Source of the DNA: Candidatus Fermentibacteraceae bacterium
Lineage (GTDB): Bacteria > Fermentibacterota > Fermentibacteria > Fermentibacterales > JCC-6
DNA length: 59,013 nucleotides
Assembly (NCBI GenBank): GCA_046485185.1
Contig: JAWOHL010000045.1
Span: 1 to 59,013 of the forward strand
Direction: 5' to 3'
Notes under the pieces: model-generated
The model's database searches: none
Seen by the model: the letters and a program-made list of their open reading frames with translations, nothing else
Told to the model about the DNA's origin: nothing
Position numbers and translations under genes: made by a program
Part shown: positions 16,598 to 58,731 of the stretch, in pieces
Numbering within the stretch: the stretch's first letter is position 1
How the letters are laid out: every line of letters starts with the position of its first letter

Positions 16598-17475
16598 TGA
16601 TCGAAGAGTATTCACGGGAGCTCAGGTTCGGCAGGAACCTCTCACCCGAAACGGTAAGGGCGTACGCCGGGGATATGGGCAGGCTTGCGGAGTGGTTCGA
16701 CGGCGCTCTTTCCGAGGCGACCCGAGAGGTCCTGAGAGGGTTTTTGATGCACGAGACCGCAAGGGGGCTCGACTCCCGAAGCCTTTCCCGGCTGGTGAGC
16801 GCCATGCACTCATTCGGCTCCTGGCTTTCGGAGACAGGCAGGGCCGGCGCCGACCCCTCCATCGGAATCAGACCACCGGCAAAATCCCGGAAGCTTCCCG
16901 GTTTTCTTTCGGTCAGGGAAGTCCTGGCGGTTCTGGACGTGTTTGACGGCAAAACCCCTGTCGCGGCGCGAAACAGGGCTTTGCTCGAAATACTTTACGG
17001 CTGCGGGCTCAGGGCCTCCGAGGCCGCCGGCCTCACCGTTACAGCACTCAGCCCCGCAGAGCGGACCCTCAGGGTCACCGGAAAGGGCGGCAGGACCAGG
17101 ATATCGCCGCTGCCAAGCGGAACGGCGGTTCACCTTGAAAACTGGCTTTCACAGAGACACCTGCTTCTGGGAAGCCGTCAGGACACCGGACACGTCTTTC
17201 TGAGCGTGAGGGGCAGGAAGCTTGACCCCCGTGACATCAGGCGTATTGTTGCGGCAGCGGTTGACGGGGCTGCGCTTTCAGCGGGTGTTTCCCCGCACAC
17301 TTTCAGGCACAGTTTCGCAACCCATCTCCTTGAGAGGGGCGCCGGCCTCAGGGAGGTTCAGGAGCTTCTTGGTCATGCCGGCCTTGGCACAACACAGATA
17401 TACACCCATCTCACCGGGGAGAGGCTGCGGAAGTCATACCAAAACGCCCACCCGAGGGGGAGGAGCGCCCATTGA
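16597..17475 (+). CDS. xerC: Tyrosine recombinase XerC
   Basis: RNRALLEILYGCGLRASE, GKGG, SPHTFRHSFATHLL, LLGHA..TTQIYTH; topA-xerC-hslVU context. Confidence 0.9.
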   Translation: MIEEYSRELRFGRNLSPETVRAYAGDMGRLAEWFDGALSEATREVLRGFLMHETARGLDSRSLSRLVSAMHSFGSWLSETGRAGADPSIGIRPPAKSRKLPGFLSVREVLAVLDVFDGKTPVAARNRALLEILYGCGLRASEAAGLTVTALSPAERTLRVTGKGGRTRISPLPSGTAVHLENWLSQRHLLLGSRQDTGHVFLSVRGRKLDPRDIRRIVAAAVDGAALSAGVSPHTFRHSFATHLLERGAGLREVQELLGHAGLGTTQIYTHLTGERLRKSYQNAHPRGRSAH

Positions 17476-20312: not shown

Positions 20313-20315
20313 CCC

Positions 20316-20870
20316 ATGGAAAACCTTTTCCGGGCCACGACTGTCATCGGCATGGTTCGCGACGGCAGGGCCGCCATGGCCTCCGACGGCCAGGTGACAC
20401 TGGGGGACACAGTGGTCAAGCAGAACGCAAAAAAAGTGCGTCTATTGTGCGGAGGGTCAGTTCTCGTAGGTTTCTCCGGGGCCGGCGCCGATGCCTTCGC
20501 ACTGGTGGAGAGGCTCGAGGAGAAACTCGACGGTTTCAGGGGCAACCTTCCCAGGGCCGCTGTTGAACTCGCCCGTGAATGGAGGTCGGACCGTTACCTT
20601 CGCGAGCTTCAGGCAATGCTGGCCGCCGTTGATCGAAGTCACGCCCTGCTCATCGGCGGATCGGGGGAGGTCGTGGAGTCACCGGACGGGATAGTCGCCG
20701 TGGGTTCAGGATACCCATACGCACTGGCAGCGGCCAGGGCACTGGACAGGCACACCAGGATGGGTCCGGGCAGGATCGTCCGGGAAGCCATAAGCATTGC
20801 CTGTGACATCTGCATCTACACCGGAGGCAGCATCCAGTCGGAGGAGATATGTCCACAGCCCGAAGCCTGA
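20316..20870 (+). CDS. hslV: ATP-dependent protease peptidase subunit HslV
   Basis: ATTVIG, DGQVTLG, GFSGAGADAFAL, WRSDRYLR, GSG, DICIYT. Confidence 0.96.
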   Translation: MENLFRATTVIGMVRDGRAAMASDGQVTLGDTVVKQNAKKVRLLCGGSVLVGFSGAGADAFALVERLEEKLDGFRGNLPRAAVELAREWRSDRYLRELQAMLAAVDRSHALLIGGSGEVVESPDGIVAVGSGYPYALAAARALDRHTRMGPGRIVREAISIACDICIYTGGSIQSEEICPQPEA

Positions 20871-22159
20871 CGCCAACCGAGACCGTTCAGTGGCTGGACA
20901 AGCATGTGATCGGTCAGACAAAGGCGAAGAGAACGGTTGCCATCGCCCTCAGGAACCGCCACAGGAGGAAGATGGTGCCCGAGCCGGTGCGCTCCGAGAT
21001 ATACCCTTCGAACCTGATAATGATGGGCCCGACCGGTGTGGGAAAGACTGAGATAGCAAGACGCATGGCCACCCTTGTAGGCGCTCCGTTCGTGAAGGTC
21101 GAAGCAACCAAGTACACCGAGACCGGCTATGTCGGCCGTGATGTGGAAAGCATGGTCCGCGATCTCGTGAGGCAGGCGGTCAACCTGTCCGCCGGTATGG
21201 CCCGCGAGGCCAAGTTCACCGAGGCCATGGCCCGGGTCAACGCCAGGCTCACCGAGGCCCTCCGGAAATCGGGGGACGACTTCGGCTCCGATGCTGAACT
21301 GCATAGGATGCTGGAAAGCGGGATCCTCGACGCAAGGGAGATCGAGCTTTCCGTATCAGAGAAACCCACGCTCGAGGTCCTTCCCATGATGCCCGGGATG
21401 GACAACTCCGCCGGCGAACAGCTCAAGGGAATGTTCGAGAAGATCATGGGCCAGCGCAGACGCAGGGCGAGGCTTTCGGTATCCGAAGCCAGGGCCAGGC
21501 TGATGGACGAGGAGACATCGCTGCTTCTCGAGGGCGGCGATCACGTTCAGGAAGGCCTCCGCCTGGCGCAGGAAGAGGGCATAATCTTCATCGACGAGAT
21601 AGACAAGATCATTGGCGCGGACGGGGGAGCGGGGCCCGATGTTTCCCGGATGGGAGTCCAGAGGGACCTTCTTCCCATTCTCGAGGGCTGCACCATCGCC
21701 ACCAGGTACGGTCCCGTGAAAACCGACCACATCCTCTTCATTGCGGCGGGTGCTTTTCACGGAAGCAGCCCCTCCGACCTGATACCCGAGCTTCAGGGAA
21801 GGTTCCCGCTGCGGGTGTCGCTCGATCCGCTGGGCAGGGATGAACTGCTTCGCGTACTTACTGAACCCGAGGGCTGCCTCCTCAAGCAGTACACCGAACT
21901 TCTCGCGGCGGACGGAGTTCACCTGAAGCTCGAACCTGAAGCCTGCGCGGCTGTTGCGGAAACCGCTCAGATACTGAACCAGGAATTGGAGGACATCGGG
22001 GCAAGGCGCCTCAGACCCGTTCTTTCATTCCTTCTGGATGATTATCTTTTTGGTGCTCCCGATGTTTTCACAGGAAAGGCCCGCATAACGGGAAAGGTCG
22101 CCCAGGATAAACTGGCGGGTCTTGTTGAAAGGCGGACTGAAGATAACTATATTCTGTGA
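20849..22159 (+). CDS. hslU: ATP-dependent protease ATPase subunit HslU
   Basis: GPTGVGKTEIARR, KVEATKYTETGYVGRDVESM, IFIDEIDK, GVQRDLLP, ELQGRFP, IGARRL. Confidence 0.97.
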   Translation: MSTARSLTPTETVQWLDKHVIGQTKAKRTVAIALRNRHRRKMVPEPVRSEIYPSNLIMMGPTGVGKTEIARRMATLVGAPFVKVEATKYTETGYVGRDVESMVRDLVRQAVNLSAGMAREAKFTEAMARVNARLTEALRKSGDDFGSDAELHRMLESGILDAREIELSVSEKPTLEVLPMMPGMDNSAGEQLKGMFEKIMGQRRRRARLSVSEARARLMDEETSLLLEGGDHVQEGLRLAQEEGIIFIDEIDKIIGADGGAGPDVSRMGVQRDLLPILEGCTIATRYGPVKTDHILFIAAGAFHGSSPSDLIPELQGRFPLRVSLDPLGRDELLRVLTEPEGCLLKQYTELLAADGVHLKLEPEACAAVAETAQILNQELEDIGARRLRPVLSFLLDDYLFGAPDVFTGKARITGKVAQDKLAGLVERRTEDNYIL

Positions 22160-22195
22160 ACTTTTACCGTTCGCGTCTTTCGAAACGGAGGGCTG

Positions 22196-22774
22196 ATGCA
22201 CCGCTCGGGTAACGATGTCGCCTACAAGATCGTCTACTATGGCCCCGGTCTTTCGGGCAAGACAACGAACCTGAGGGGGATCAGGGATCTCGTTGCCCCC
22301 GAGAACAGGGGGCGTCTGGTAACGCTTTGCACAAGGTGCGAACGAACGGTGTTCTTCGACTTCCTTCCGGTGAACTTCGCCCGCATCGGAGACACCAGGG
22401 TCAAACTTCACCTTTACTCTGTGCCGGGGCAGGCCTACTACGCCCTGAGCCGCAGGGTCATCCTCGACGGCGTCGACGGGATCGTGTTCGTGGCCGACAG
22501 CCAGAAGGAACGCACCGAGGCCAATCTGAACACCATGGACGATCTGGAGCACAACCTCTCCTCGTACGGGCTCGACGCCGGCCGGATTCCGCTGGTCCTT
22601 CAGTTCAACAAGCGCGACCTTCCAGGGATCATGCCCGTGGAACAGATGAGCCGCGACCTCAACAGGCACGGATGGCCCACTGTCGAGTCCGTCGCCCTGG
22701 GCGGCTCAGGACCGACGGAAACTCTGAAGGAGATCGCCAGGGTGATGGCCAGGCGCCATGGCGCGCTGGTCTGA
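22196..22774 (+). CDS. mglA: MglA-family small Ras-like GTPase (copy 2)
   Basis: KIVYYGPGLSGKTTN, ERTVFFDFLP, LYSVPGQ, GVDGIVFVADS, QFNKRD; GGAGG RBS. Confidence 0.9.
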   Translation: MHRSGNDVAYKIVYYGPGLSGKTTNLRGIRDLVAPENRGRLVTLCTRCERTVFFDFLPVNFARIGDTRVKLHLYSVPGQAYYALSRRVILDGVDGIVFVADSQKERTEANLNTMDDLEHNLSSYGLDAGRIPLVLQFNKRDLPGIMPVEQMSRDLNRHGWPTVESVALGGSGPTETLKEIARVMARRHGALV

Positions 22775-24914
22775 ACCTTTTTCCTCCTCCATAGCCCGTT
22801 TCGCGACCCTTTTCCTTTTCATGGGCGCTGCGCTGGCTTTCAGGGCGTTTTTTTCCGTCCAGGTAATGCCCCCTCCGCTTCTGATGCAGGGAGAGGCGAC
22901 CCAGGCCTACAGGTATTCCGCAATGATCTCACGGGGGGAGGGGATTCCCCGGATCGATCCCATGTCCATGCACCCCGGGGGCTTCCAAACGGGGCAGAAC
23001 AGCATATTCGAAGAGTACATCGCCGGTGGCCTCCACAGGGTTTTGGGAGGGGACTTCGACCGTTTCATGCGCCTGTTCTGCCTGGTGTTCCCGCTTCTTG
23101 CCATTCCCGGCATCTATCTGTGGACGGGCGCCGCTGGGTTTTGCCGGCGGACCGCCCTGTCGGCATCAGCTCTGTACGGAATCCTCCTTCCCGCCATCCT
23201 CAGGGCAAGGGGGGAAAGCCTTTACCGCGAGACGGTCGCCCTGCCCCTTATCATCTTTCTGGGATGGACCCTCGAACGTGCCCTGAGGACTGAGTCCGGA
23301 AGGCTGCGCCCGGCCGTTGCATCCGGCCTTCTTCTTTTTGCGGCCCTGGCATCCTGGAAGGTAACGGGGTTCCTCGCCTTGTTCATCTTCGCGTACCTGC
23401 TCTTTTCCCGAAGCGTTCCGAGGGATCCCGCACTCATCGTTCCCCTTGGCGCCGCACAGCTTCTGGCAAGCCTGTTTCTCTCCCACATGAGGCACGACAC
23501 GGCAATTTTATCGCCCGCGTCGATCCTTGCAGTTGCCGCCATGCTTTCGTGCTTCGCCCCGGCACGGCTGCGAAGGGCGATCCCCTGGGCTGGTGTCCTG
23601 GCGGCCGTCGCGGCGGCGGTGCTGCTTCCCGGCGAAGGCGGTCATGTGACGGCTGTTGCATTGGCCAAGATAAGGTTCCTTTTCAGGCACCCGGCCGATC
23701 CACTGCTTCTGTCCCCTGATGCCCGACTGTTCTGGGTCGGGGGCTACACGAGCCCCACTCCGGGCGAGTTCATCTGGCTCTTCGGTCCGCTTGTCCTTGC
23801 GGCAATACCCGGGATCGCCCTCTTTCTCAAACAGGCCCGGGGCCGCCTGATGGTCCCTTTTCTCTTCGTCTCCATGGCGGGTTACCTCTTCTTCGACCGT
23901 TTGCACGTCTTTCTGGCGGTGGCGCTGGCGCCGATCCTGGCGCTTTATGCCCGTAAAAGAGCCCTTCTGCCGGTCGTTTTTATATTGGCGGGGGCGCACT
24001 CGGTTTTCGCCCCTTCACTGGGACAGCGGCTTTCGGAGGCGGGGCTTTCATTCCGCCCCGGCGCATCCCTTCTCACAGATAACGAGGTGGACGGTTATCT
24101 CCGGTGGGTCAAAGCATCATCCGACTCCACCGGGGCCTTCCTGGCGTACTGGCACGTCTCAGGTCTGACCAGCGCGTACGGGGAGAGGCCAACGGTCCTT
24201 CACACGTTCTTCGAGAACCGTCTGAACCGTGACAATATCGTGGAGTTCTCGGCAGGGCTCTTCCAAACCCCGGAGGAACTGGTCTCCTTCATGGAGGAGA
24301 AGGAAGCCCGCTACCTTGTGTACCAGGCGGATTTTCTGCTTGACCTCTCATGGCAGGGCGCTGCTTACCTGGGAGGGGTGACCGCCCCACACGACTCGTC
24401 CGCCGCTTTCCTGATGCACTACATGCCGGAGCACCTGGAACGCCTTGCCCTTGTCTGGCAGGGAGCATCCATTCGCGTTTTCGAGCTCGACGGCACTGCA
24501 GTCACCCTGCCACCCAACCCCCTGTTCATTCTCAGGTACAAGCCTTTCTTTGACTATGAGACCGCCCTCGGTTACATATCCGATCCTGTTGGGACGGCCC
24601 TTGCGCTCGGCTCCTCGGGCCTTGCGCACCGCGACCCAAATGCCGCATCCGCCGCTCTTCTGATGCTGTCTGAAAGCCCGGCCGATGTGCCCGCCCAGGC
24701 ATCCGTCGGCCTGCTGCAATTTCTTGTTGAAGCCCATCTTGCTGGTGCTTATCACATTCTGGACCTTGAGGGGGATTTCGAGGCCTACCTTGCGGCCTGG
24801 GGTCCCGACCGCGAGGTGAGGCTTGACCTGGTGCGTCTTCTGGAACGGGCTGGTCTTCGGGACAGGGCCCTTCACCAGTATGGGCTGGCTTTTGAGGAAG
24901 GAGGTGCCCTGTGA
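22758..24914 (+). CDS. GT-C fold membrane glycosyltransferase, DPY19-like (C-mannosyltransferase-like)
   Basis: Polytopic; collinear DPY19-like motifs QGEATQAYRY, R..ESLYRETVALP, SWKVTGF, GHV....AK, DRLHVFL, WVK..S, GERPTVLHTFFEN..NR; no WWDYG. Confidence 0.65.
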   Translation: MARWSEPFSSSIARFATLFLFMGAALAFRAFFSVQVMPPPLLMQGEATQAYRYSAMISRGEGIPRIDPMSMHPGGFQTGQNSIFEEYIAGGLHRVLGGDFDRFMRLFCLVFPLLAIPGIYLWTGAAGFCRRTALSASALYGILLPAILRARGESLYRETVALPLIIFLGWTLERALRTESGRLRPAVASGLLLFAALASWKVTGFLALFIFAYLLFSRSVPRDPALIVPLGAAQLLASLFLSHMRHDTAILSPASILAVAAMLSCFAPARLRRAIPWAGVLAAVAAAVLLPGEGGHVTAVALAKIRFLFRHPADPLLLSPDARLFWVGGYTSPTPGEFIWLFGPLVLAAIPGIALFLKQARGRLMVPFLFVSMAGYLFFDRLHVFLAVALAPILALYARKRALLPVVFILAGAHSVFAPSLGQRLSEAGLSFRPGASLLTDNEVDGYLRWVKASSDSTGAFLAYWHVSGLTSAYGERPTVLHTFFENRLNRDNIVEFSAGLFQTPEELVSFMEEKEARYLVYQADFLLDLSWQGAAYLGGVTAPHDSSAAFLMHYMPEHLERLALVWQGASIRVFELDGTAVTLPPNPLFILRYKPFFDYETALGYISDPVGTALALGSSGLAHRDPNAASAALLMLSESPADVPAQASVGLLQFLVEAHLAGAYHILDLEGDFEAYLAAWGPDREVRLDLVRLLERAGLRDRALHQYGLAFEEGGAL

Positions 24915-25735
24915 GTTTCGAGTTCACGAAGATGAGCGGCGCCGGAAACGACTTCATTGTTCTGGACAGCACTGACAACCCCGGTTCCCGGGGGCCTTCC
25001 CGCGACTTCATCGCCGGGGTCTGCCGCCGGGGGCTGGGGGTGGGCGCTGACGGGCTGCTCGAACTTCTGCCACCGATGGGCGGTGAAGCCTTCCGCATGA
25101 GCTACTTCAACTCGGACGGGGGCCGGGCTTCAATGTGCGGGAACGGGGCCAGGTGCATCTGCACTTTCGCCTTCTCCCGGGGGCTCGTGAAGATGGGGGA
25201 GCCCTTTGATTTCACCTCCGACTCCGGTCTGCATCACGGGCTGGTGCTGACACCCGATTCCGCCAGGATATGGATGACTGAACCGACTGTTTCGTTCCTC
25301 GGCAAATCCCTGGGTCCCGGTATGAGTTGGCCCGTGAGCCTTGTGGACACGGGCGTCCCTCACGCGGTGGTCCTTCGGGAACGGCTTGACGACGGCACCT
25401 TCGAGAAGATGGCGCCCGTTCTCAGGCGCCACACCGGGACCGGCCCCGCTGGCGCCAACGCGAACTGGGCAATGGTGCTGCCCGATGGTTCCCTTTCCCT
25501 CAGGACGTTCGAGCGGGGAGTGGAGGGGGAAACCCTGGCATGCGGCACCGGCGCGGTAGCCGCAGTTCTGGTCTGCCTCGAAACGCTGCCCGGTTTCACT
25601 TTGCCGGCCTCTGTCCGCGTGGCCAGCGGGCTCTCTCTCACCGTGGGTCGTGACGGCCGTGGATGGTGGCTTTCAGGCGAGGCCCGGGCGGTTTACAGGG
25701 GGGTTCTGCTTCCCGAAAACGAACCCGAAGCTTGA
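24911..25735 (+). CDS. dapF: Diaminopimelate epimerase
   Basis: FTKMSGAGNDF, GVGADG, NSDG..SMCGNGARC, TGVPH, RTFERGVEGETLACGTG. Confidence 0.97.
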   Translation: MSFEFTKMSGAGNDFIVLDSTDNPGSRGPSRDFIAGVCRRGLGVGADGLLELLPPMGGEAFRMSYFNSDGGRASMCGNGARCICTFAFSRGLVKMGEPFDFTSDSGLHHGLVLTPDSARIWMTEPTVSFLGKSLGPGMSWPVSLVDTGVPHAVVLRERLDDGTFEKMAPVLRRHTGTGPAGANANWAMVLPDGSLSLRTFERGVEGETLACGTGAVAAVLVCLETLPGFTLPASVRVASGLSLTVGRDGRGWWLSGEARAVYRGVLLPENEPEA

Positions 25736-25760
25736 CGATGGAGCCCCCTGTGAATATCTA
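25732..25760 (+). promoter_or_regulatory. Possible promoter for tRNA-Gly
   Basis: TTGACG - 17 nt - TATCTA, 16 nt upstream of the mature tRNA 5' end. Confidence 0.4.
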
Positions 25761-25776
25761 TCCCGAGCTTTCCGGA

Positions 25777-25852
25777 GCGGGCATAGCTCAGTTGGTAGAG
25801 TGTCAGCTTCCCAAGCTGAATGTCGCGGGTTCGACCCCCGTTGCCCGCTCCA
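25777..25852 (+). tRNA. tRNA-Gly (anticodon CCC)
   Basis: Acceptor GCGGGCA/TGCCCGC, D-arm TAGCTCAGTTGGTAGAG, anticodon arm TCAGC-TTCCCAA-GCTGA, T-loop GGTTCGAC, discriminator U, encoded CCA; 76 nt. Confidence 0.97.
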
Positions 25853-25880
25853 AGCCTTTCCCCATACGGGAGCAGTACAC

Positions 25881-32083: not shown

Positions 32084-32094
32084 GGGAGGGTTTT

Positions 32095-33862: not shown

Positions 33863-33940
33863 TCAGGGAATGTACCCTTTTTCAGGCCGGCGGAAAACCC
33901 CGCCCTTGAAAACAACCCTTCCGGGGCCGTACTTCAGAGC

Positions 33941-35846: not shown

Positions 35847-35873
35847 GACGGTAATATTGCCTTTCCACGGGGT

Positions 35874-35902
35874 TTGCCGCCAGTGACGGTCCGGGCTATC
35901 TT
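35874..35902 (+). promoter_or_regulatory. Putative promoter for the M42 peptidase
   Basis: TTGCCG - 17 nt - TATCTT. Confidence 0.5.
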
Positions 35903-35929
35903 CCCCGCCAGAGGAAAGGAAACCGCAAC

Positions 35930-40566: not shown

Positions 40567-40567
40567 G

Positions 40568-41494: not shown

Positions 41495-42570
41495 GACTGC
41501 TGATGTGCGCCGGCGAGCCATCCGGCGACATCAGGGGCGGCGAACTGCTCAGGGCGCTCAGCTCTGGAACGGCCGTTGAAGCCTTCGGGATGGGGGGCGA
41601 TTCGATGGCTGCGGAAGGGATGGAAACTGTCCTGAACATCAGGCAGCTTTCCGTCATGGGCTTCACCGAGGTGTTGCGCTCACTTCCCAGGGTGTTTGCC
41701 GCGGAAAGGGAACTCAAGCGTCTGGTCCTTTCAAGGAACCCCGACGCACTGGTACTGGTTGACTACCCGGGCTTCAACATGCGTCTCGGCGCGTGGGCCC
41801 GGGCAAGGGGCATACCTGTGGTGCAGTACATCGCCCCCCAGACGTGGGCATGGGGAGCGTGGAGAACCCGAAAACTGGCGAAGTCCTGCAGCCTGCTTCT
41901 CGTGATACTTCCCTTCGAGGAGGATTATTTCAGGCAAAGGGGGATCAATTCCCTGTACACGGGGCACCCGCTGGCCGACCAGATCCCGGTTACCTTCCCG
42001 GAACCCCGGGGGGCCGTACGGATAGCCCTGCTGCCGGGAAGCCGTGGACAGGAGGTGACCAGGCTGCTTCCGGAGATGGTTGCCGCCTTTCGAATACTTC
42101 AGGCCGGGGGTGAGGTTTCGGGCGCCTCGATCGCCGTCTCGGAATCGGTCGATCCTGGCGCCTACCCCTCGCCCGGAAACGGGCTCGAACTGGCGGGGGG
42201 AACCGCCGGAGCCCTTCAGAACGCATCGGCCGCCCTGGTGTGCTCCGGGACGGCAACCCTCGAAACCGCCATGCACGGAGTGCCCCAGGTCATCTGTTAC
42301 AAAACTGGGCGGGTGAACTTCCTTCTCGCGAAGCTGCTGGTCAGGGGCGTGGGCAGGATAGGGCTCGCCAACCTTGTGGCGGGGGCCGACATAGCTACAG
42401 AGCTCCTGCAGGGCAGTGCGACAGCGCGAATCATGGCACAGACCCTGAGCGAAACCCTCCGCGATCCTTCCCGCCGCAGCGCCACCGAAACGGTCAGGCT
42501 CAGGCTGGGCCCTCCGGGCGGGGCCGGCAGGGCAGCCGAAGCGGTGATCCGTTTTCTGGAGTCGGGATGA
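41491..42570 (+). CDS. lpxB: Lipid A disaccharide synthase
   Basis: AGEPSGD, VMGFTEV, DYPGFN, PQTWAW, ILPFE, GHPL, LPGSR, SGTATLE. Confidence 0.96.
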   Translation: MRLLMCAGEPSGDIRGGELLRALSSGTAVEAFGMGGDSMAAEGMETVLNIRQLSVMGFTEVLRSLPRVFAAERELKRLVLSRNPDALVLVDYPGFNMRLGAWARARGIPVVQYIAPQTWAWGAWRTRKLAKSCSLLLVILPFEEDYFRQRGINSLYTGHPLADQIPVTFPEPRGAVRIALLPGSRGQEVTRLLPEMVAAFRILQAGGEVSGASIAVSESVDPGAYPSPGNGLELAGGTAGALQNASAALVCSGTATLETAMHGVPQVICYKTGRVNFLLAKLLVRGVGRIGLANLVAGADIATELLQGSATARIMAQTLSETLRDPSRRSATETVRLRLGPPGGAGRAAEAVIRFLESG

Positions 42571-44339
42571 GGTTCCCGGTCACCGCCGCCCGGATACTTG
42601 TGACCCTTCTCGGCAGGACGTGGCGCATTGAGACACTGAAAGCCACTGCGGACCTGCCCGGTGAAAGGGTTCTCTATTCGCTGTGGCATGGCAGCCAGCT
42701 CCCGCTTCTTTTCACTCACAGAGATCAGGGGTTGAAAGTACTTGTCAGTCGAAGCCGCGACGGCGGGATCCTGGCGGCTCTGCTCCACTCCATTGGCTAC
42801 GGGACGGTCAGGGGCAGTTCATCCAGGGGAGGGGCTCAGGCAGTGGCGGACCTCTGCGCAGCCCTGCAACTGAAAACCTGCGCCATTACGCCGGATGGCC
42901 CCAGGGGTCCCCGGGAGGTCCCGAAAGACGGGCTTTTCATTGTGGCTAAAAGGGCCGGCGTCCCCGTGAAGGCAATAGGGGCCGCAGCTTGGCCGGCCCT
43001 CAGGCTTTCAAGCTGGGACAGGTTCCTTGTTCCTCTGCCCTTCTGCAGGGTGACTGTGGCCGAGGGTGTTCCGATCCCTCCTGGAAGGCTTTCCCGCGTC
43101 TCGGTCAACGCGGAGATGGGCAGGGTCTCAGCCCTTGCGGAACTCGCGGTCTCACCCGTGGCCGGAATCCAGGCGTTCGCGGCGGGAGCCGCAGCGGCAC
43201 TTGCGCTTCCAGTCCTCTGCTTCCGCCCCCGCCGTGAGCGGAAGGAAAGGCTCGGGTACGCGCCGGTTGGCACTTCCAGTCCCGCATGGCTTCACGGCTC
43301 ATCGCTCGGGGAGCTGAGGGGGCTTCTTCCCGTGGCTTCCATTCTGGCCTCCCGGGGAGTGCCGGTGCATGTCACATGCTTCACCCCCTCCGGAAGGGAT
43401 TTCATTGACCGAGAGGGGTTCACAGGCAGCTTCCTTCCGCTTGACACCCCATCGTGCGTCCGGAGGTTCCTCTTCCGCGTGAAACCCAGGTGCCTGATCC
43501 TCGCCGAGACCGAATTGTGGCCCTGCCTTCTCAGGGAAACCGTGCTTGCCGGCATACCCGCAGGCATGGTAAACGCCAGGATGGGAAGCAAGGGTCATAA
43601 ACGGTATACCCCCATAAGAAGAACACTTGCCGGTTCCCTCTCATGCTTTGCCGGAATACTCGCCCGCACCGATAACGACGCAGCGGCATTCAGGAGCCTG
43701 GGGGTCAGACCGGGGATAGTAACCGTTGCGGGCGATGGCAAGGCCGCGGTGGCTCCCGAAGGTCCCGAACCCTGCTGGAGCCGAATGCTGCTTCCAGACC
43801 GTGATTATGTCGTTGCAGGTTCAACAAGGCCCGGCGAGGAGGAGTTCGTCCTCAAAGCAGCTGCTCTGGCCGGGATGGGGGTCATTCTGGCTCCAAGACA
43901 CGCGGAAAGGGTCGGGGAGGCCCTTGCGGCAGCCACAGCCCTGGGATTCACGCCGGGGCTCTTCAGCCGGGCGGACGGTCCCTCAGATTGCATGGTGATA
44001 GACACACAGGGAGTGCTTTCGCGAGTTTACGCGCTGGGTAAGGCAGCTTTCCTCGGGGGTACGGTCGCACCCGTCGGCGGCCACAACATACTCGAGCCGC
44101 TGAGCCAGGGTCTTCCGGTCGTTGTGGGCCCCCATCACGGCAATCACGGTATGATTGTGGCGGAAGGTGTTGAACGCGGTATCGTGGGGGTGGCGCTCAC
44201 CCCCGAAGAGATGGCCGGCATCCTCATGAAATGGAGCGGGTCGCCGGACCTTTCCGGTATCGCGGTTGAACTGGCTTCGGCCGGAAGCCTTCATTTTCAG
44301 CGCGAATTGTCAGCCCTGCTGGAAGGATTGATGCTTTGA
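42567..44339 (+). CDS. waaA: Fusion of DUF374 (acyltransferase-like) and Kdo transferase WaaA
   Basis: N-terminal WHG, SRSRDG, RGSSSRGG, TPDGPRGP, SWDRF..P.PF; C-terminal WLHGSSLGE, ETELWP, AGST, APRH, GGHNILEP; one uninterrupted frame. Confidence 0.88.
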   Translation: MRFPVTAARILVTLLGRTWRIETLKATADLPGERVLYSLWHGSQLPLLFTHRDQGLKVLVSRSRDGGILAALLHSIGYGTVRGSSSRGGAQAVADLCAALQLKTCAITPDGPRGPREVPKDGLFIVAKRAGVPVKAIGAAAWPALRLSSWDRFLVPLPFCRVTVAEGVPIPPGRLSRVSVNAEMGRVSALAELAVSPVAGIQAFAAGAAAALALPVLCFRPRRERKERLGYAPVGTSSPAWLHGSSLGELRGLLPVASILASRGVPVHVTCFTPSGRDFIDREGFTGSFLPLDTPSCVRRFLFRVKPRCLILAETELWPCLLRETVLAGIPAGMVNARMGSKGHKRYTPIRRTLAGSLSCFAGILARTDNDAAAFRSLGVRPGIVTVAGDGKAAVAPEGPEPCWSRMLLPDRDYVVAGSTRPGEEEFVLKAAALAGMGVILAPRHAERVGEALAAATALGFTPGLFSRADGPSDCMVIDTQGVLSRVYALGKAAFLGGTVAPVGGHNILEPLSQGLPVVVGPHHGNHGMIVAEGVERGIVGVALTPEEMAGILMKWSGSPDLSGIAVELASAGSLHFQRELSALLEGLML

Positions 44340-47573: not shown

Positions 47574-47579
47574 GGAAGA

Positions 47580-48107: not shown

Positions 48108-48108
48108 G

Positions 48109-52498: not shown

Positions 52499-52506
52499 GG
52501 CCTTCC

Positions 52507-52535
52507 TTTCCGCCGGGGTCGAAGTCTAATATAAT
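52507..52535 (+). promoter_or_regulatory. Putative promoter for the porV-surE operon
   Basis: TTTCCG - 17 nt - TATAAT (52530-52535) in a divergent intergenic region. Confidence 0.45.
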
Positions 52536-52577
52536 CCGGCCTGGAACCGCCATTCCAGAAAACGATACAGGTGATGT

Positions 52578-53501
52578 ATGAAACAGACACACGGTTTTAC
52601 GGTCATCAAACTCCTGCTCCTCATGGTGCTCTTCCTTACGGGCGCGTCTTCAGCCGAGGCAGTGTACCGTGACGCAGGCGCGGCTTCATGGCCATTTCTG
52701 AAAATGGACATCGGGGCAAGGGCCGCCGCTCTCGGTGGAACGGGGCTTCTCAATTCCGGCGCCCTCGCCATTTTCGCCAATCCGGCCCTTCTGGCCTTTC
52801 AGGAGGCTTCGGTCACCGCATCGCACAACTCATGGTACGGCAAGACCGATCAGCAGGTGCTTTCCGCCGTATTTCGCCGGGGTGACCGCCTGGGCGCTTC
52901 CCTGGCCTTTCGCGTTCTTAACACCAGCGGGCTCGAGTACCGCGAAACCCCCTCCTCTGAACCGCTCGGAACCTTCGACGTCACCGACCTCAGTCTCAAC
53001 GCCGCCGTGGGTTTGCGAATCGGCGGCAGCTTCGCTGTGGGAGCAGGGGTCAAGTTCATTCGGGAAAAGGTGTGGATCGAGGAGAGCTCCGGGTTCTGTT
53101 TCGATATCGGGCTTCTCTCCACACCTGCCAGGGGACTGGTCCTTTCCGCCGCCGTACAGAACATCGGGCCGGGCGCGGTCATGGCTTCACGCGAGTACAG
53201 GCTTCCCAGGACAATCAGGGCGGCAGCCGGTTACACCGTTCCATCACCGGTTGGTTCCCTGACGGTATCCACCGAGATACAGAAACCCATCGACAACAGC
53301 CCAAGGGGAGGAGCCGGCCTCGAGTACCAGCCGCTTTCATGGGTCGCCCTCAGGGGAGGATACCGGTTTAACGACCCATCGAGCACCATCACCACGGGGA
53401 TGGGATTCTCACAACGCGGCTGGGTGCTCGATTACGCTTATGTCCCGGGGACTCACTCCCTGGGGGACACTCACAGGTTCACCCTGACCCGCGCGCTCTG
53501 A
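52578..53501 (+). CDS. PorV/PorQ-family outer-membrane beta-barrel
   Basis: Signal peptide; FLKMDIGARAAALG, FANPA, QNIG, LRGGY, DYAY..LG.THR; alternating beta-strands. Confidence 0.82.
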   Translation: MKQTHGFTVIKLLLLMVLFLTGASSAEAVYRDAGAASWPFLKMDIGARAAALGGTGLLNSGALAIFANPALLAFQEASVTASHNSWYGKTDQQVLSAVFRRGDRLGASLAFRVLNTSGLEYRETPSSEPLGTFDVTDLSLNAAVGLRIGGSFAVGAGVKFIREKVWIEESSGFCFDIGLLSTPARGLVLSAAVQNIGPGAVMASREYRLPRTIRAAAGYTVPSPVGSLTVSTEIQKPIDNSPRGGAGLEYQPLSWVALRGGYRFNDPSSTITTGMGFSQRGWVLDYAYVPGTHSLGDTHRFTLTRAL

Positions 53502-53512
53502 GTTCCGCTTCA

Positions 53513-54241
53513 ATGCTTATCCTTCTTGTGAACGACGACGGCATCCACGAGCCGGGGCTTCTGGCACTTGAGAGGGCACTCTCCGGATACGAGACATTCA
53601 CCGTGGCCCCCATCGGGCACTGCTCGGGCGCCGGAATGTCGCTCGGGCTCTACGCGCCGCTGTCCGTCGTGCCATGTGGTCCCGGCCGGTACGCCGTCAC
53701 CGGAACGCCTGTAGACTGTGTCAAGATAGCTCTCGCCGAGCTGCTGCCCGAAAAGCCCGACCTTGTCATTTCGGGGATCAACCCCGGGGCGAACCTCGGC
53801 AACAACATCTGGTACTCCGGCACCGTGGCCGCGGCCACTGAAGCTTCGTTCTGGAACGTTCCCGCAATGGCGGTCAGTGTTGAGCACTCGGTTGAGCCGG
53901 ATTTCGGTCACGCGGCCGAACTGGTCGGGCGGATGGTCGAACGGGGCGTTCACAGGGCCTTGCCCCCGGGCATGATGCTCAATTTGAACCTCCCTCCCGG
54001 CGCCCCTTCGGGACTGAAGCTGACAAGACCAGGCAGTTTTCGAAGAGAGGTGCCCTTCCTCAAGCACCCCGACGGCTCCTTCTCCTACGGTCCCTACGAA
54101 CTCCAGGGAACAAGGGAGTCAGGGGGGACCGATGTCCACGCGATCCTTTCGGGTTACGGATCGATCTCCGTCCTCAGACCCGGAAGGGACGCCACACCCG
54201 CGCCGGAGGAACTGGAGGACTGGTGCCTGACGCTGTTCTGA
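53513..54241 (+). CDS. surE: 5'/3'-nucleotidase SurE
   Basis: LVNDDGI, GTPVDCV, SGINPGANLG, YSGTVAAA.E, LNLN.P. Confidence 0.96.
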   Translation: MLILLVNDDGIHEPGLLALERALSGYETFTVAPIGHCSGAGMSLGLYAPLSVVPCGPGRYAVTGTPVDCVKIALAELLPEKPDLVISGINPGANLGNNIWYSGTVAAATEASFWNVPAMAVSVEHSVEPDFGHAAELVGRMVERGVHRALPPGMMLNLNLPPGAPSGLKLTRPGSFRREVPFLKHPDGSFSYGPYELQGTRESGGTDVHAILSGYGSISVLRPGRDATPAPEELEDWCLTLF

Positions 54242-55932
54242 CCGCCCTCCTTCTGGGTCTCATTCCCGACCTTCCGGACGCAGTCTTCGTTCAGAACTCC
54301 GTCACTGTCCAGATCGATTCGGTGTACACTGAAACCACCGAACTGGTCGTTATCCCCCTCACCGGGCGGGGGGTTGCACGGTTCACCACACTCTCTGTTC
54401 CCTTCCGTACGGGCTGGGAAACGGTGGAACTGCTGGAAGCCAGAACCGGGTTGTGGAGGAGCGGCAGACGGGGCTCCGACGCCGTGGTCACGGAACGGCC
54501 CCATCATGCACTGGCGGGTCAGTCCCGTCTCGAGTCGTCCATGCGGGAACTTCTCCTGACAATGCCCGGCCTCGAAACCGGAGACACGGTCGTGGTCCGG
54601 ACCCGCCGGGTCATTCAAAGACTCCCCCTCGCGGACTGCTACAGCTACCACTTCAGCCCCTGGTGCCGGGACAGTGTCATCGCAGGGGAGTTCACAGTCA
54701 TCGACATGAGGAACTCCGGGCTTTTTGTTGAATGGTCTCCCGAATTCGGTCCTCCCGACACCTCGGGATGCACCCTGAGGTGGAGCGTCGGCCCCCTGAG
54801 CCCCCTTTACGACCACCCGCTCGCCTTCTGGAACAGGCCGTACGCGGTCGTGGCATCGCATGACGGGCAGTCGGTCTCACGCGAGCTTCATGCGGCACTG
54901 GATATCCCCTACAGCACAGACTCCGGGCTGCTTTCGGAGGTGGCGGCAGTGACCGGCCCGACTCCGGATGACATGCGTGACTGGATAGCCGGGAACATCG
55001 AGTACACAGGCGCCGACATAGGGGACTGGCCCGGCTTCACCCCAAAACCGCCCCGGGAAACCCTCGATGATGGGGCGGGTGTCTGCCGTGACACTGCGAT
55101 TCTCCTCGTCAACCTGATCCGTGCCACGGGCGGGGAGGCATGGCTCGCGATGCTGGACACAACGGGGGGCATACCCGGGCTGGTGGGAAGCAGGAGCTTC
55201 GATCACATGGTTGTCGCTGTCCCTCATGGGGAAGGTTTCAGAGTGCTCGACCCTTCGGCAAAGGGTGTGGCGGACGGACACAGCTACGGGCTTCGGGGAA
55301 CACGGTTCCTTCCCCTGACGCCCTGGGGAACACCCCTTCAATCGATCCCGGTCGACGGCTGGGAAGACAGCCTCAAACTCGTGTTGATGGGCACCCTTGG
55401 CGACGGCTTCGTCTCCGGAAGCCTCACAGTAACCGCCTCCGGAGCCCCGGCCGAACTGCTCGGCACCATTATGGAAAGATCGCACGACGCTTACAGGATC
55501 ACTCTGCTTTCAAGGTTCTTCGGCGCCGAGAGCATTTCGGCGGTCTCCAGCGCGGGGGACACCCTCTTCATCTCAGGGGAGTGGAGCGCACCCGGCGGGG
55601 AGGGGGCGGTGTTGCTTCCCGGCCTCAGGGACATCGCCTTTCCGGGCACAAGGGCCGCCCACCTTCTGATACCGGCATGCCCCGGCAGCATCGAGCTTGA
55701 CGCGCCTGCTCACGAGAGCCTCACCATGGTTCTGGCCCACAACGGCAGGGCAGTGATCCCTCCCGCTCCGGTGACCACCGATGGCTATTCATGCAGCATT
55801 TCCATCCACGGCGATTCCCTTTTCATGCGGGAAACCGCCCGTGTGCTGCCCCTTCGCCCCGAACCGGGGCGCATCCTCGAAACCCTCCTCTTACGCTCGG
55901 GCTCATCAGCGAGAACGGTTCTGACGCCATGA
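54223..55932 (+). CDS. DUF3857 plus transglutaminase-like domain protein (catalytic triad intact)
   Basis: MPGLETGD (DUF3857-like); GVCRD, FDHMVV, LDPS (Cys-His-Asp). Confidence 0.82.
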   Translation: MPDAVLTALLLGLIPDLPDAVFVQNSVTVQIDSVYTETTELVVIPLTGRGVARFTTLSVPFRTGWETVELLEARTGLWRSGRRGSDAVVTERPHHALAGQSRLESSMRELLLTMPGLETGDTVVVRTRRVIQRLPLADCYSYHFSPWCRDSVIAGEFTVIDMRNSGLFVEWSPEFGPPDTSGCTLRWSVGPLSPLYDHPLAFWNRPYAVVASHDGQSVSRELHAALDIPYSTDSGLLSEVAAVTGPTPDDMRDWIAGNIEYTGADIGDWPGFTPKPPRETLDDGAGVCRDTAILLVNLIRATGGEAWLAMLDTTGGIPGLVGSRSFDHMVVAVPHGEGFRVLDPSAKGVADGHSYGLRGTRFLPLTPWGTPLQSIPVDGWEDSLKLVLMGTLGDGFVSGSLTVTASGAPAELLGTIMERSHDAYRITLLSRFFGAESISAVSSAGDTLFISGEWSAPGGEGAVLLPGLRDIAFPGTRAAHLLIPACPGSIELDAPAHESLTMVLAHNGRAVIPPAPVTTDGYSCSISIHGDSLFMRETARVLPLRPEPGRILETLLLRSGSSARTVLTP

Positions 55933-57329
55933 CCGCCGGCATTCTCCTCTGCGTTGCGGCTTCGCTCTCCCGAACCGTTTTTCTCGACATCGAACTCTTC
56001 AGGGAACAGGACCTCACCCGCGCCGTTTTCACGGTAACCGGCTTGCAGGGCGATGACATGAGGTTTTCAAGGGTATCGCAGGACTACGACCCCGAATACA
56101 TGTCCGTGACCTTTCTCGGCGCGAGCCGCGAGGTTCCGGTTTGGGGGGTGGACACCCTGACCGGCGCGGGCGGCTGGCCCAGGACCCTGATGGTCGCCAT
56201 GCCCGGCATAGAACCGGGAACCGGGGTGACGTGGACCTTCAGTGCCGAAGAGTTCGGCGAAAATGCCAGGAAGGGCTTCTGGTGGCACTGGAGCGGAACA
56301 CCCGGACCCGACTCGGTGAGGGTGTCGGTCCATTCTTCGCAGGAGTACGGTGTTCATCTCCGGGGCTTCACCGAAGTCGAGCCGGGAGTTTTCGTTTCCC
56401 TTTCTGAGAACACCCGGGCAATATGGTTGGGTTCTCCATCCACCTGGCGTGAAACAGGGGGGATGGTGATGGGCGCAGCCCTTTCAGTGCTTTCCGCAGG
56501 TGATCCCTTTCCGCCCGACCTCACCGAAGCCGTGATCCAGGCAGGAGCGGCAGGCGTCTCGGTGGACCTTTTTCTGGGCAGGGCGAGGACACTGATCTCA
56601 GACAACATCCGCGTCATATCGCCCAGGGGGGAAGCCGCGCTCAGGGTGAGGTCTCTTCAGGCCATACTCGACACCAGGTACGCCACGCCTCTGGAAACGG
56701 CCATGCTTTTCTGCGCCATGGCCAGGCGGGCCGGACACGAAGCCCGTCTGGCGGCGGCCCGCAACGACCTTCCGCCATTCCCGTACCCAATAGGCTGGAA
56801 CAGGTTTCTCGTCAGGGTGGACACCCCTGACGGCGCCCTGTGGTTCGAGCCTTCGGCGCCGCTGTCACCCGCCGGTTACGTGGAATCATCCGACACACTG
56901 TTCGTTCTGGTCGAGGGGATGGACCAGGTCCTCACCATCGACCCGAACCCGGGAACGGGCAACCTCTGCCGCGAAAACTGGACGATGGACCCTTCGGCGG
57001 GAACCTTCACACTGACCCTGGACTGCAGGGGAGGGTTCGACATGGAACTCCGGGAACGGCTCGGAGGGATGCCCGCGCGGGATGCTCTGCTGGCGCTCTC
57101 CGATTGGTTCCGTGTCTCGGGGATACACCTTTTCCCCACATCCTGCGTCACATCGGACTTTTTCGATCTGGCAACCCCCGCGACCCTCACAGTGAACGGT
57201 GTGCTTTCGGGATCTTCTTCGCCCGTTTACGAAAGGGTTCCGGAACTCGCATGGCGAAGCCCCGGCGAAAGGGTGGTCGAGGTCAACGGTTCACCGGTTC
57301 TGGGAAAGGTCCTTCTGAGGATTGAATAG
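55929..57329 (+). CDS. DUF3857/transglutaminase-like paralog with degenerate triad
   Basis: MPGIEPGT; ILDTRYATPLE, WNRFLV, WFEPS at the triad-equivalent positions; ATGA overlap with the upstream paralog. Confidence 0.7.
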   Translation: MTAGILLCVAASLSRTVFLDIELFREQDLTRAVFTVTGLQGDDMRFSRVSQDYDPEYMSVTFLGASREVPVWGVDTLTGAGGWPRTLMVAMPGIEPGTGVTWTFSAEEFGENARKGFWWHWSGTPGPDSVRVSVHSSQEYGVHLRGFTEVEPGVFVSLSENTRAIWLGSPSTWRETGGMVMGAALSVLSAGDPFPPDLTEAVIQAGAAGVSVDLFLGRARTLISDNIRVISPRGEAALRVRSLQAILDTRYATPLETAMLFCAMARRAGHEARLAAARNDLPPFPYPIGWNRFLVRVDTPDGALWFEPSAPLSPAGYVESSDTLFVLVEGMDQVLTIDPNPGTGNLCRENWTMDPSAGTFTLTLDCRGGFDMELRERLGGMPARDALLALSDWFRVSGIHLFPTSCVTSDFFDLATPATLTVNGVLSGSSSPVYERVPELAWRSPGERVVEVNGSPVLGKVLLRIE

Positions 57330-58731
57330 GCTTCTCGCTGTTCTGCTCGTTGTCATTGCCGGGGCCACGGTCAGGATCGTCCTTTACCGGGCGAACGAAG
57401 ACCTCTTCGCACACCCGCAGGTGGATGAACTTGAATACCTCGAACCTCTTTCCACGCCCTTCGAAAGGCCTCCCGGAACCTATTTCGCCGCCAGGCTTCC
57501 TTACGCCCGAGTCGCCGTTTCCGTCATCTCGCTGCTTCCCTCCCTGTTCTTCCTTCTCGCGCTTCCGCGTACAAGGAGAAACCTTGTGCTGTCGGGGCTT
57601 CTGGCCGTTGAGCCTACACTTGCCCTCAGCGGGATTCAACTGCTCCCCGAAGCTCCAGCGGCGGCCCTCACGGCCCTCTGCCTCGTGCTCGCGCACAGTG
57701 GCCGCAACAGGATGGCAGGCTTCGTTCTGGGCGCCGCAGCGCTCTTCCGGGGGGAACTGCTGATCCTGCTGCCGCTGCTGCCCATCCTGGGCAGAAGGGG
57801 GAGGACCATGGCCCTCTTCGCCCTGGCCGCGGTGGCTCCGGTCGTTGCGGTGAACATGGCTTCCGGCGGCCCCCCCTCGGTGGCATCCACGGGCGGGATG
57901 AACCTGTGGATAGGTTCTGACTGGAGCCTTCTTTCGACCCCACCGGGAGTGGAGTTCGAACAGCTCATGGAGGTGCGGCCGGGGCACTCGTTCACCGAAA
58001 GGGCCGTGTCCATTATCGGGGAAGACCCAGCGGGATGGGCTTTAAGAGGGATGACGAAGTCTCTTGCCTTCTTCACGCTGCCGGGTCCGGGGCGCAACAT
58101 AGACTCGGGCGAAGCCCTGAAACCGCTCATCGTGCTTCTGGGGGTGACTGCCCTTTTTCTGGCGGGCGCGGCCGGCATCCGTCGCGATCTCGCGTCGTTG
58201 CTCATGCTTTCCGGAGTCCTGAGCGCCTTTCTCTTCTTCCCGTCCGTTCGCTACAGGGTTGTCTTTCTGCCCGCCTTCGCCCTGACCGCGGCCGCCCTTC
58301 CCTGGAGAAGGCTGCTTTTTGCGGTGCCCGCCGTTCTTGCCCTCAGCCTCTTCCTTCAATACCCGGGCCATGTCAGACCCGGGCTCAACACACTGCTGAC
58401 CGCTCAGAACGCCCTTCGGGAAAACGATGCCGCAGGGTGCCTGGCGCTGCTCGATGAAGCAGGGCAACAGGGCTTCGAGGGCGCGGACATCCACAATATC
58501 AGGGCATCCGCAATGGCAATCGAGGGCAGGGAGTTCCGGGATGTGCTGCTGGAGTTCGGACTGGCGCTGGAACTGGCTCCCCGGTCCCCGACGGTCTGGA
58601 GGAACATGGCGGCCTTCCTGTGGAACTACGGCAGGACGCAGCATGCACGGGAAGCCGCGCAAACTGCCGTGCGCCTCGATCCCGGGCTCGAAGCAGAGCT
58701 TTCTGAGATACTCTCCTCCCCGACGGAATAG
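57322..58731 (+). CDS. GT-C (PMT/ArnT/TMTC-like) membrane glycosyltransferase with C-terminal TPR
   Basis: Acidic loop VDELEY after TM1, RPPG, GGMNLWIG, RYRV..LP; many TM helices; TPR-like ALELAP...WRNMA..AVRLDP. Confidence 0.7.
   Translation: MNRLLAVLLVVIAGATVRIVLYRANEDLFAHPQVDELEYLEPLSTPFERPPGTYFAARLPYARVAVSVISLLPSLFFLLALPRTRRNLVLSGLLAVEPTLALSGIQLLPEAPAAALTALCLVLAHSGRNRMAGFVLGAAALFRGELLILLPLLPILGRRGRTMALFALAAVAPVVAVNMASGGPPSVASTGGMNLWIGSDWSLLSTPPGVEFEQLMEVRPGHSFTERAVSIIGEDPAGWALRGMTKSLAFFTLPGPGRNIDSGEALKPLIVLLGVTALFLAGAAGIRRDLASLLMLSGVLSAFLFFPSVRYRVVFLPAFALTAAALPWRRLLFAVPAVLALSLFLQYPGHVRPGLNTLLTAQNALRENDAAGCLALLDEAGQQGFEGADIHNIRASAMAIEGREFRDVLLEFGLALELAPRSPTVWRNMAAFLWNYGRTQHAREAAQTAVRLDPGLEAELSEILSSPTE

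Follow-up and report, generated by a model that had tools for sequence, protein, structure and literature searches.

Three kinds of protein-mannosylating enzyme known from animals, TMEM260, DPY19 and TMTC, are usually regarded as eukaryotic enzymes of the endoplasmic reticulum (ER). Human TMEM260 is a protein O-mannosyltransferase acting on IPT domains, C. elegans DPY-19 and human DPY19L1-4 are tryptophan C-mannosyltransferases (PDB 7zlg-7zlj), and the animal TMTC1-4 join a small GT-C module, with an acidic pair in its first loop, to C-terminal TPRs that face away from the cytoplasm (PMC7801869). Analysis of a 59,013-nt stretch of DNA from a Candidatus Fermentibacteraceae bacterium of the phylum Fermentibacterota (contig JAWOHL010000045.1; hereafter the window) revealed three intact open reading frames (ORFs) encoding relatives or look-alikes of these enzymes (Table 1). 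An earlier note, drawn up from the letters of the window, had described them as TMEM260-like, DPY19-like and PMT/TMTC-like, and the coordinates and all three family assignments held up. Comparison of sequences and predicted structures confirmed that they are GT-C-fold membrane glycosyltransferases from three distinct families in which the catalytic residues are kept; their activity is predicted. We propose, with a probability of about 0.6, that they are three independent GT-Cs, catalytically intact as judged by their residues, that act in parallel, most likely on exported or envelope proteins, and that they are not the parts of one operon-encoded pathway. The window (60% G+C, with most genes on the + strand) is contig C49 of a host genome (G000) of 2.40 Mb that is 98.6% complete. 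Homologs close to its proteins bear source names that include Candidatus Fermentibacteria, Sabulitectum and Aegiribacteria, and in the nearest ESM Atlas cluster Fermentibacterota is the most frequent phylum.

The TMEM260-like protein matched the DUF2723 family PF11028 over profile positions 1-172 of 179, with E 1.3e-34 and a score of 120 bits where the cut-off is 24.2, and the solved human TMEM260 (9rql) at E 1.8e-18, over two aligned stretches of residues 22-152 and 331-494. Like human TMEM260, it couples a GT-C membrane domain to a large extracytoplasmic domain, with an N-terminal membrane module at ~1-430 followed by an extracytoplasmic C-terminal domain of ~450-500 aa. In the first extracytoplasmic loop, D43-S-G-E aligned onto D52-S-G-E of 9rql_A, and the D52A replacement abolishes the function of TMEM260 (PMC10214176). 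The two proteins differ in length, 946 aa here versus 707-729 aa in human TMEM260, as well as in their C-terminal parts: the alignment stops at residue 494, leaving the last ~450 aa unaligned, and this domain gave one weak match, to TPR_14 at E 2.2. They would also differ in donor and client, since TMEM260 uses a dolichyl donor whereas a polyprenyl one is expected in a bacterium, and no IPT-domain client is known here. The TMEM260 paper speaks only of 'distant homologs in bacteria' (PMC10214176), and in the literature searched, supplements aside, no study dealt with the function of DUF2723 or DPY19 homologs from bacteria.

The second enzyme was recognised as DPY19-like through its homologs, given that the single sequence matched no Pfam or NCBIfam family at E<=10 and also came back empty from a search of the PDB. 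An exhaustive phmmer search retrieved 561 cluster representatives at E<=0.001, and in a set of 62 homologs sampled from the best 150 the Dpy19 family PF10034 was matched by 52 (best 6.6e-28), TPR_2 by 37 and STT3 by three. A profile built from the 62 sequences reached the solved C. elegans DPY-19 (7zlg_A; hereafter CeDPY19) at E 1.5e-26. A second profile, of 23 homologs mostly without TPRs, likewise placed DPY-19 first (E 2.2e-21), with STT3 following at 2.7e-13 over the N-terminal membrane part. The AlphaFold model (pLDDT 94.5, pTM 0.92) comprises a membrane domain (~1-430), an alpha/beta 'dome' (~436-580) and a TPR-like helical repeat (~590-718). Foldseek returned TM 0.60-0.63 for DPY19 and oligosaccharyltransferases (OSTs) alike, and a structural aligner gave Z scores of 26.6 for STT3B (534 residues), 26.5 for AglB and 26.0 for CeDPY19 (540 residues, 14% identity). 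Because the structures could not tell DPY19 and STT3 apart, the choice between them was made from profiles and motifs. The WWDxG motif in the C-terminal domain is the signature of OSTs. The DPY19-like enzyme belongs to the same fold class as STT3, AglB and PglB, but WWD was found in 0/62 family members, this protein included, as was the fuller form WWD(Y/W)G, and the profile match to the OSTs was weaker and partial.

Residues that matter for DPY19 catalysis were traced in the same alignments. E46, R149 and R381 mapped to E71, R211 and R471 of CeDPY19, both arginines in significant stretches; in CeDPY19, Glu71 is the catalytic base and Arg211 and Arg471 are phosphate ligands (PMC10154233). Over the 62 sequences, position 46 is Glu in 57 and Asp in five, R149 is kept in 58, and position 381 is Arg in 56 and Lys in six; an alternation of Glu and Asp at the catalytic position is reported for DPY19L4 as well (PMC10154233). 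The peptide-covering dome is also kept, with model residues 436-578 matching the C-terminal domain of AglB at Z 14.5, and Tyr395 of CeDPY19 falls in an unaligned stretch. The extra C-terminal TPR-like repeat, present as true TPRs in 37/62 homologs, sets the protein apart from the animal enzymes. By this transitive and profile evidence, the label 'DPY19-like' is correct for the predicted enzyme, which is usually the single match of its kind in a genome.

The third and smallest GT-C gave only a weak TPR_2 match in profile scans, with PMT_2 and DUF1736 both unmatched at E<=10. Its fold was seen in the predicted structure (pLDDT 90), for which an all-against-all aligner found yeast Pmt1-Pmt2 at Z 17.3 (root-mean-square deviation 3.8, 285 aa), ArnT at Z 16.1 and Pmt4 at Z 15.2, with the PMT/ArnT matches covering residues 1 to ~355 and TPR proteins covering 353-469. 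Foldseek against the PDB returned TPR proteins only, such that the GT-C fold was detected just by the all-against-all aligner; Atlas models of bacterial PMT_2+TPR clusters lay at TM 0.77-0.85. Identity of the membrane domain to Pmt1/Pmt2, Pmt4 and ArnT, its best structural matches, is 11-17%, and the MIR domain is lacking. A DE motif in loop 1 is a feature of PMTs, and V34-D35-E36 was invariant in 30/30 aligned relatives of the third GT-C. For PMT1, Asp77 is cited in PMC10214176. All 57 sequence relatives came from Fermentibacterota, and the membrane part matched no Pfam family in any of them. The protein shares with the TMTCs the small GT-C module, the acidic pair in the first loop and the C-terminal TPRs, but the TMTCs carry a DD motif and DUF1736, whereas the third GT-C has DE, lacks DUF1736 and bears only three TPRs. 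DUF1736 is matched by all human TMTCs at E<1e-30 (PMC7801869). Because this TMTC-defining segment is not matched here, we regard the third GT-C as TMTC-like by architecture alone.

Comparison of 61 genomes of the phylum, 46 of them high-quality, showed that two of the three genes belong to its core. PF11028 was matched in 61/61 genomes (46/46 high-quality) and the DPY19-like gene was found in 59/61 (46/46 high-quality), making both near-universal; the third GT-C gene was found in 54/61 (42/46 high-quality) and in 0/5 genomes of one genus that does carry the other two. Intact bacterial counterparts of two enzymes of this kind, near-universal across a phylum and with their catalytic residues kept, therefore suggest an important role at the cell envelope. 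The presence of three GT-Cs in one window, the point that the earlier note had put foremost, exceeds chance only weakly. The host genome holds ~13 GT-C candidates, namely nine PMT_2 matches (seven above the cut-off), two PF11028 matches and the two enzymes missed by Pfam, and because of this number three in 59 kb are only mildly unusual, with a Poisson estimate of ~0.005 for the given window and ~0.17 for some window of the genome. A re-scan of ORFs confirmed PMT_2 in 5/8 and found a TPR in one further ORF. The roughly ten other candidates, with PMT_2 or weak TMEM260-like matches, lie on contigs C3, C4, C6, C10, C12, C29, C35, C64 and C103; the PMT_2 match on C29 is truncated, and one candidate (C6:20880-22439) ends in a C-terminal TPR.

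From the families to which the enzymes belong, we infer that each would draw on a polyprenyl-monophosphate-sugar carrier for a single sugar, on the side of the inner membrane that faces the periplasm. The enzymatic activity of all three is a prediction, as are their sugar, donor lipid and acceptors. Transfer would proceed through a carboxylate of the first loop, D43 in the TMEM260-like enzyme, E46 in the DPY19-like enzyme (with R149 and R381 on the phosphate) and D35/E36 in the third, and the acceptor would be chosen by the periplasmic helical-repeat, TPR or dome domains, exported or envelope proteins being the likeliest acceptors. The three enzymes would work in parallel, perhaps from a common donor pool, like TMEM260, DPY19 and TMTC in the ER of animals. 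The first two genes are inserted into an old housekeeping array, the TMEM260-like one between xerC and hslVU and the DPY19-like one between mglA and dapF of topA-xerC-hslVU-mglA-dapF, and the third closes an operon of PorV-like, SurE and two transglutaminase genes.

Candidates for making the donor of these reactions are ArnC/GtrB- and Dpm1-like members of glycosyltransferase family GT2 encoded on other contigs; the earlier note, which saw no GT2 in the window, had placed the donor pathway elsewhere. Indeed, none of the 24 GT2 (PF00535) matches in the genome lies on the window contig, a result borne out when the ORFs of the window were scanned with Pfam. Eight of the 24 resemble polyprenyl-phosphate-sugar synthases, all scoring under the strict equivalog cut-offs of NCBIfam, and they include both types. 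The better matched of the two, on contig C25, aligned over its full length to the solved ArnC at E 1.3e-44, to GtrB at 6.6e-22 and to an archaeal DPMS at 1.5e-18, and it is found in 59/61 genomes of the phylum at 60-94% identity. Among solved proteins, the Dpm1-type GT2, a protein of 232 aa encoded on contig C10 near a PMT_2 gene, matches the P. furiosus DPMS best (E 1.3e-9). A polyprenyl-phosphate-sugar donor can thus be available from candidate synthases elsewhere in the genome. The flippase that was sought together with them fared differently, as no GtrA match passed the cut-off in the genome (best E 0.02).

The C25 gene heads an operon (G000:C25:4360-10450, minus strand) that also encodes a GT4, an RmlD-like epimerase, an LPG_synthase_TM protein and a 753-aa multi-pass protein without a Pfam match, which may be a YfhO-like GT-C. 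This operon is probably a three-component glycan-modification set. We dropped the idea that its ArnC-like GT2 is dedicated to the three window GT-Cs, because the gene belongs to this separate operon and has the large multi-pass protein as a partner there. In three-component systems a GT2 and a small flippase are encoded beside the GT-C, and neither was found beside any of the three GT-Cs of the window, whose neighbours are housekeeping or transglutaminase-like genes.

In agreement with the earlier note, the TMEM260-like and DPY19-like genes flank hslVU-mglA in a tight run on one strand: the TTG start of the TMEM260-like gene overlaps the xerC stop (TTGA), a 3-nt gap separates it from hslV, mglA and the DPY19-like gene overlap by 17 nt, and the latter joins dapF (GTG start) at GTGA. 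The note had inferred a multi-enzyme periplasmic protein glycosylation system; on that reading the three enzymes, with hslVU-mglA between two of them, would be coordinated, co-expressed and functionally coupled. The array is old. In 12 loci from 12 genomes, representing three families of Fermentibacterota, the order topA-xerC-TMEM260-like-(hslVU)-mglA-DPY19-like-dapF-...-GT9-polA-sulfatase was kept in 12/12, with topA and xerC upstream in all 11 loci extending that far, and with mglA directly 5' of the DPY19-like gene, and dapF retained, in every one. The hslVU genes follow the TMEM260-like gene in 9/12 loci; in the three where they are missing from that place (L049, L050 and L058, from genomes G004, G001 and G007) the two GT-C genes are near-neighbours, separated by mglA alone. 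It also speaks for coupling that both genes are phylum-core, as is the ArnC-like donor synthase. However, collinearity spans the whole region of ~20 kb, topA, dapF, polA and the sulfatase gene included, and the third GT-C lies at a similar distance in many genomes, which points to general synteny. The adjacency of the TMEM260-like gene, mglA and the DPY19-like gene is general collinearity, and because the whole region is collinear it says little about function. A predicted complex of MglA with the DPY19-like protein scored 0.02 against a mark of 0.32, which is evidence for neither side. As to transcription, the five sequencing runs in which the stretch is contained are recorded as DNA, and no RNA run was listed.

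The linkage seen in the phylum did not recur at the loci sampled outside it. At 34 non-phylum DPY19-like loci, collected with an 8-sequence subgroup alignment and mainly from Elusimicrobiota (the rest comprising single loci of Armatimonadota, Planctomycetota, Desulfosudaceae and Clostridia, two of Omnitrophota and one unclassified), mglA, a TMEM260-like gene, hslVU or dapF was a neighbour in 0/34; the neighbours were heterogeneous, with a XerC-like gene at five loci and a GT2 at one. At 18 of the loci, 107 flanking proteins were compared and no glycosylation partner recurred; they comprised a single PMT_2, a single GT2, peptidases, SurA-like isomerases, a cobalamin adenosyltransferase and others. 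In addition, PF11028 scored above its cut-off in just 2/5 DPY19-bearing genomes of other phyla. The third GT-C is found 32 kb from the DPY19-like gene, in a separate conserved operon-like run (PorV-like-SurE-transglutaminase-transglutaminase-GT-C/TPR) that is kept in 9/10 phylum loci with the GT-C gene last and overlapping the second transglutaminase-like gene at its start (TTGA), and it is the enzyme found in 0/5 genomes of the genus mentioned above. The claim of one coupled multi-enzyme system was consequently not borne out, and we consider such a system improbable.

Analysis of putatively exported proteins provided a lead of a different kind that favours protein acceptors. The O-glycosylation system of Bacteroidota, which moves a lipid-assembled oligosaccharide by means of an O-oligosaccharyltransferase (PMC8729774), modifies the tripeptide D(S/T)(A/I/L/M/T/V), and the same tripeptide is over-represented in putatively exported proteins here. 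Counts were compared with within-protein shuffles; genes were called crudely as the longest ORFs, and hydropathy decided which proteins were classed as exported. Among the 307 putatively exported proteins of the host genome D[ST][AILMTV] occurred 403 times against 311 +/- 13 expected (ratio 1.30), with a site in 179 of them, whereas the 428 cytoplasmic proteins had 205 against 205 +/- 15; the reversed motif, D[ST][KRHWY] and N-x-S/T were without excess in this genome. At the first position Asp showed the strongest export specificity of all 20 amino acids, and Leu (2.04-fold) and Ile (1.43) led at the third position. DSL was found 101 times in exported proteins against 46.5 expected under a first-order Markov model, with flanks that are not conserved. 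This preference resembles that of P. intermedia, where the preferred glycosylated form is DS(L/I/V) (PMC10897501).

A genome from another family of the phylum showed the bias as well. The ratios for D[ST][AILMTV] and DS[LI] were 1.30-1.32 and 2.40 in the host genome (307 exported proteins) and 1.38 and 2.21 in a 0.8-Mb genome (G004, stretches L136-L175; 82 exported proteins) from the genus in which the third GT-C was not found, as compared with 0.87 and 1.00 in a Desulfosudaceae control (99 exported proteins), 0.58 and 0.15 in an Elusimicrobia control (33) and 1.08 and 0.61 in an Armatimonadota control (132 kb with 15 exported proteins, and so of little weight). The export-limited bias was thus seen in 2/2 phylum genomes versus 0/3 control genomes. 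As a lead and not as proof, it leans towards protein glycosylation in Fermentibacterota without pointing to the responsible enzyme. Taken together, the enrichment of a known bacterial sequon in putatively exported proteins and the presence, as separate conserved genes, of intact counterparts to three protein-mannosylating enzymes of animals hint at protein glycosylation.

A more specific scheme can be drawn from the same data, although we put it forward tentatively and hold it to be unlikely. Fermentibacterota might possess general protein O-glycosylation at D-S/T-(L/I/V), with the TMEM260-like GT-C reading the sequon and the DPY19-like enzyme adding a second, C- or O-linked, hexose modification. 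The TMEM260-like GT-C is proposed as the reader because its family, alone of the three, is also matched in Bacteroides thetaiotaomicron, the sole PF11028-positive among 14 control genomes. The O-oligosaccharyltransferase of Bacteroidota was still unidentified in 2022 (PMC8729774).

Several observations weigh against the proposal of three parallel enzymes acting on exported or envelope proteins. The sequon bias depends on rough ORF calling, on an exported class defined roughly by hydropathy and on controls with few exported proteins (99, 33 and 15). Nor does it follow the enzymes, for TMEM260-like and DPY19-like genes are both present in the Elusimicrobia control, which shows no bias. The C25 ArnC-like GT2 may serve the multi-pass partner of its own operon and not the window GT-Cs. 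The DPY19-like protein misses the Pfam Dpy19 model, a PF10034 search of the host genome returning zero matches, its model is as near to STT3 as to DPY19 so that structure gave no separation, and the assignment of E46 to E71 sits in an alignment stretch that is insignificant by itself (-2.0 bits). Its counterpart of Tyr578, the 'peptide sensor' of CeDPY19, is Phe485 (51 Phe and seven Tyr among the 62), and WxxW is present 211 times against 185 +/- 11, inside the range of other spacings (153-240) and with no notable excess. On the side of the acceptors, the PMT/ArnT class includes the lipid A-modifying ArnT, the window and the genome are rich in lipopolysaccharide (LPS) and other envelope genes (LpxB, KdtA, LpxK, GT9), and periplasmic TPRs are known also from polysaccharide export machines.

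The last of these points lend themselves to another explanation, in which some or all of the three enzymes modify non-protein acceptors (lipid A or LPS core, a glycolipid, peptidoglycan or a surface polysaccharide) as the GT-C arm of a GT2-flippase-GT-C route. Among the enzymes to which the third GT-C is likened, the acceptor is protein for PMT and lipid A for ArnT, and ArnT was its second-best structural match (Z 16.1). The window also holds lipid A and core genes, dapF, ddl and a CDP-alcohol transferase, other GT-C genes of the genome adjoin Dpm1/AglJ-like GT2s (contigs C10 and C35), and three-component systems are a common route (PMC11127046). Nevertheless, the absence of a GT2 or flippase neighbour at all three genes argues against such a route, as do the TPR or dome domains and the sequon-like bias among exported proteins. 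Moreover, all characterised members of the STT3/DPY19 class among our matches act on peptides, and the TMEM260 and DPY19/STT3 members characterised so far, among those encountered, take protein acceptors only. We therefore regard non-protein acceptors as a real possibility but still an unlikely one, and we favour exported or envelope proteins.

The nature of the bond formed by the DPY19-like enzyme is a related question. The enzyme could be a genuine tryptophan C-mannosyltransferase, placing C-mannosylation in bacteria, and its profile homology to CeDPY19 is consistent with this, as is the lack of the OST motif WWD in all 62 sequences and the conservation of the Glu/Arg/Arg set for metal-independent C-mannosylation, including the alternation of Glu and Asp (57 to five) seen in DPY19L4. 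However, the sensor tyrosine is replaced by Phe, the fold is equally near to OSTs, and the substrates expected of such an enzyme did not stand out: besides the unremarkable WxxW count, TSR-like WxxWxxW occurred seven times against 3.9 +/- 2.0 in the genome, providing no sign of TSR-like proteins, although single acceptor sites may occur. We consider tryptophan C-mannosylation highly doubtful, and retain for this enzyme the more general reading of a GT-C acting on exported or envelope proteins.

If the acceptors are proteins, bacterial protein glycosylation would be wider than the known PglB, PglL and Pmt systems, and the eukaryotic enzymes would gain prokaryotic relatives amenable to expression and crystallisation. 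The export-specific D-S-(L/I) bias would in that case be a concrete sequon and a tie to the O-oligosaccharyltransferase of Bacteroidota; should the TMEM260-like GT-C read it, the family would offer a candidate for the Bacteroidota O-glycosyltransferase that has been missing since 2009. A second modification by the DPY19-like enzyme, if true, would place a DPY19-type reaction in bacteria. If LPS or another polymer is decorated instead, the three genes would be an ordinary, though well conserved, envelope-modification set.

Table 1. Features of the 59,013-nt window, in order of position
Feature	Position	Strand	Evidence or remark
Sugar-1-phosphate nucleotidyltransferase with hexapeptide tail, then two GT4 glycosyltransferases	8235..11312		
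Heptaprenyl-diphosphate-synthase-component-I-like membrane protein	11273..11785		follows the two GT4 genes
Second MglA paralog of the window	12317..12919		~50% identical to the MglA at 22196..22774
The same mglA, one-base overlap, then gene for a 479-aa protein	12317..14358		479-aa protein without Pfam or PDB match
topA and xerC, upstream flank	14405..17475	+	Topoisom_bac E 6e-101; Phage_integrase E 8e-38
TMEM260/DUF2723-like GT-C glycosyltransferase, 946 aa	17472..20312	+	PF11028 match; human TMEM260 match
hslV, proteasome-like peptidase subunit	20316..20870	+	PF00227 E 7e-19
hslU, AAA+ ATPase	20849..22159	+	AAA_2 E 1.6e-27
MglA-family small GTPase, paralog 2	22196..22774	+	M. xanthus MglA E 8e-56; T. 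thermophilus MglA 2e-54
DPY19-like GT-C glycosyltransferase, 718 aa	22758..24914	+	family profiles; structure model; Pfam matches of homologs
dapF, downstream flank	24911..25735	+	DAP_epimerase E 1.1e-31
699-aa ORF, N-terminal DUF374 fused to a Kdo transferase domain	42240..44339		Glycos_transf_N
PorV-like-SurE-transglutaminase-transglutaminase-GT-C/TPR run	52578..58731		
Two transglutaminase-like/DUF3857 genes 5' of the third GT-C	54223..57329	+	Transglut_core E 5.5e-5, DUF3857 E 5.6e-4; second copy weak, E 0.0089
Small PMT/ArnT-class GT-C (~1-350) with three C-terminal TPRs (353-469), 469 aa	57322..58731	+	predicted structure; structural alignment

The MglA encoded between hslU and the DPY19-like gene is a true MglA with an invariant P-loop and invariant PGQ and NKRD motifs. 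The other mglA of the window, together with the gene of the 479-aa protein that follows it, stands upstream of topA in all three phylum loci reaching that far. Among the genes beside the third GT-C, the first transglutaminase-like protein (569 aa) contains eight D[ST][AILMTV] sites. The fusion of DUF374 to a Kdo transferase domain lies within a run of lpxB, kdtA and lpxK.

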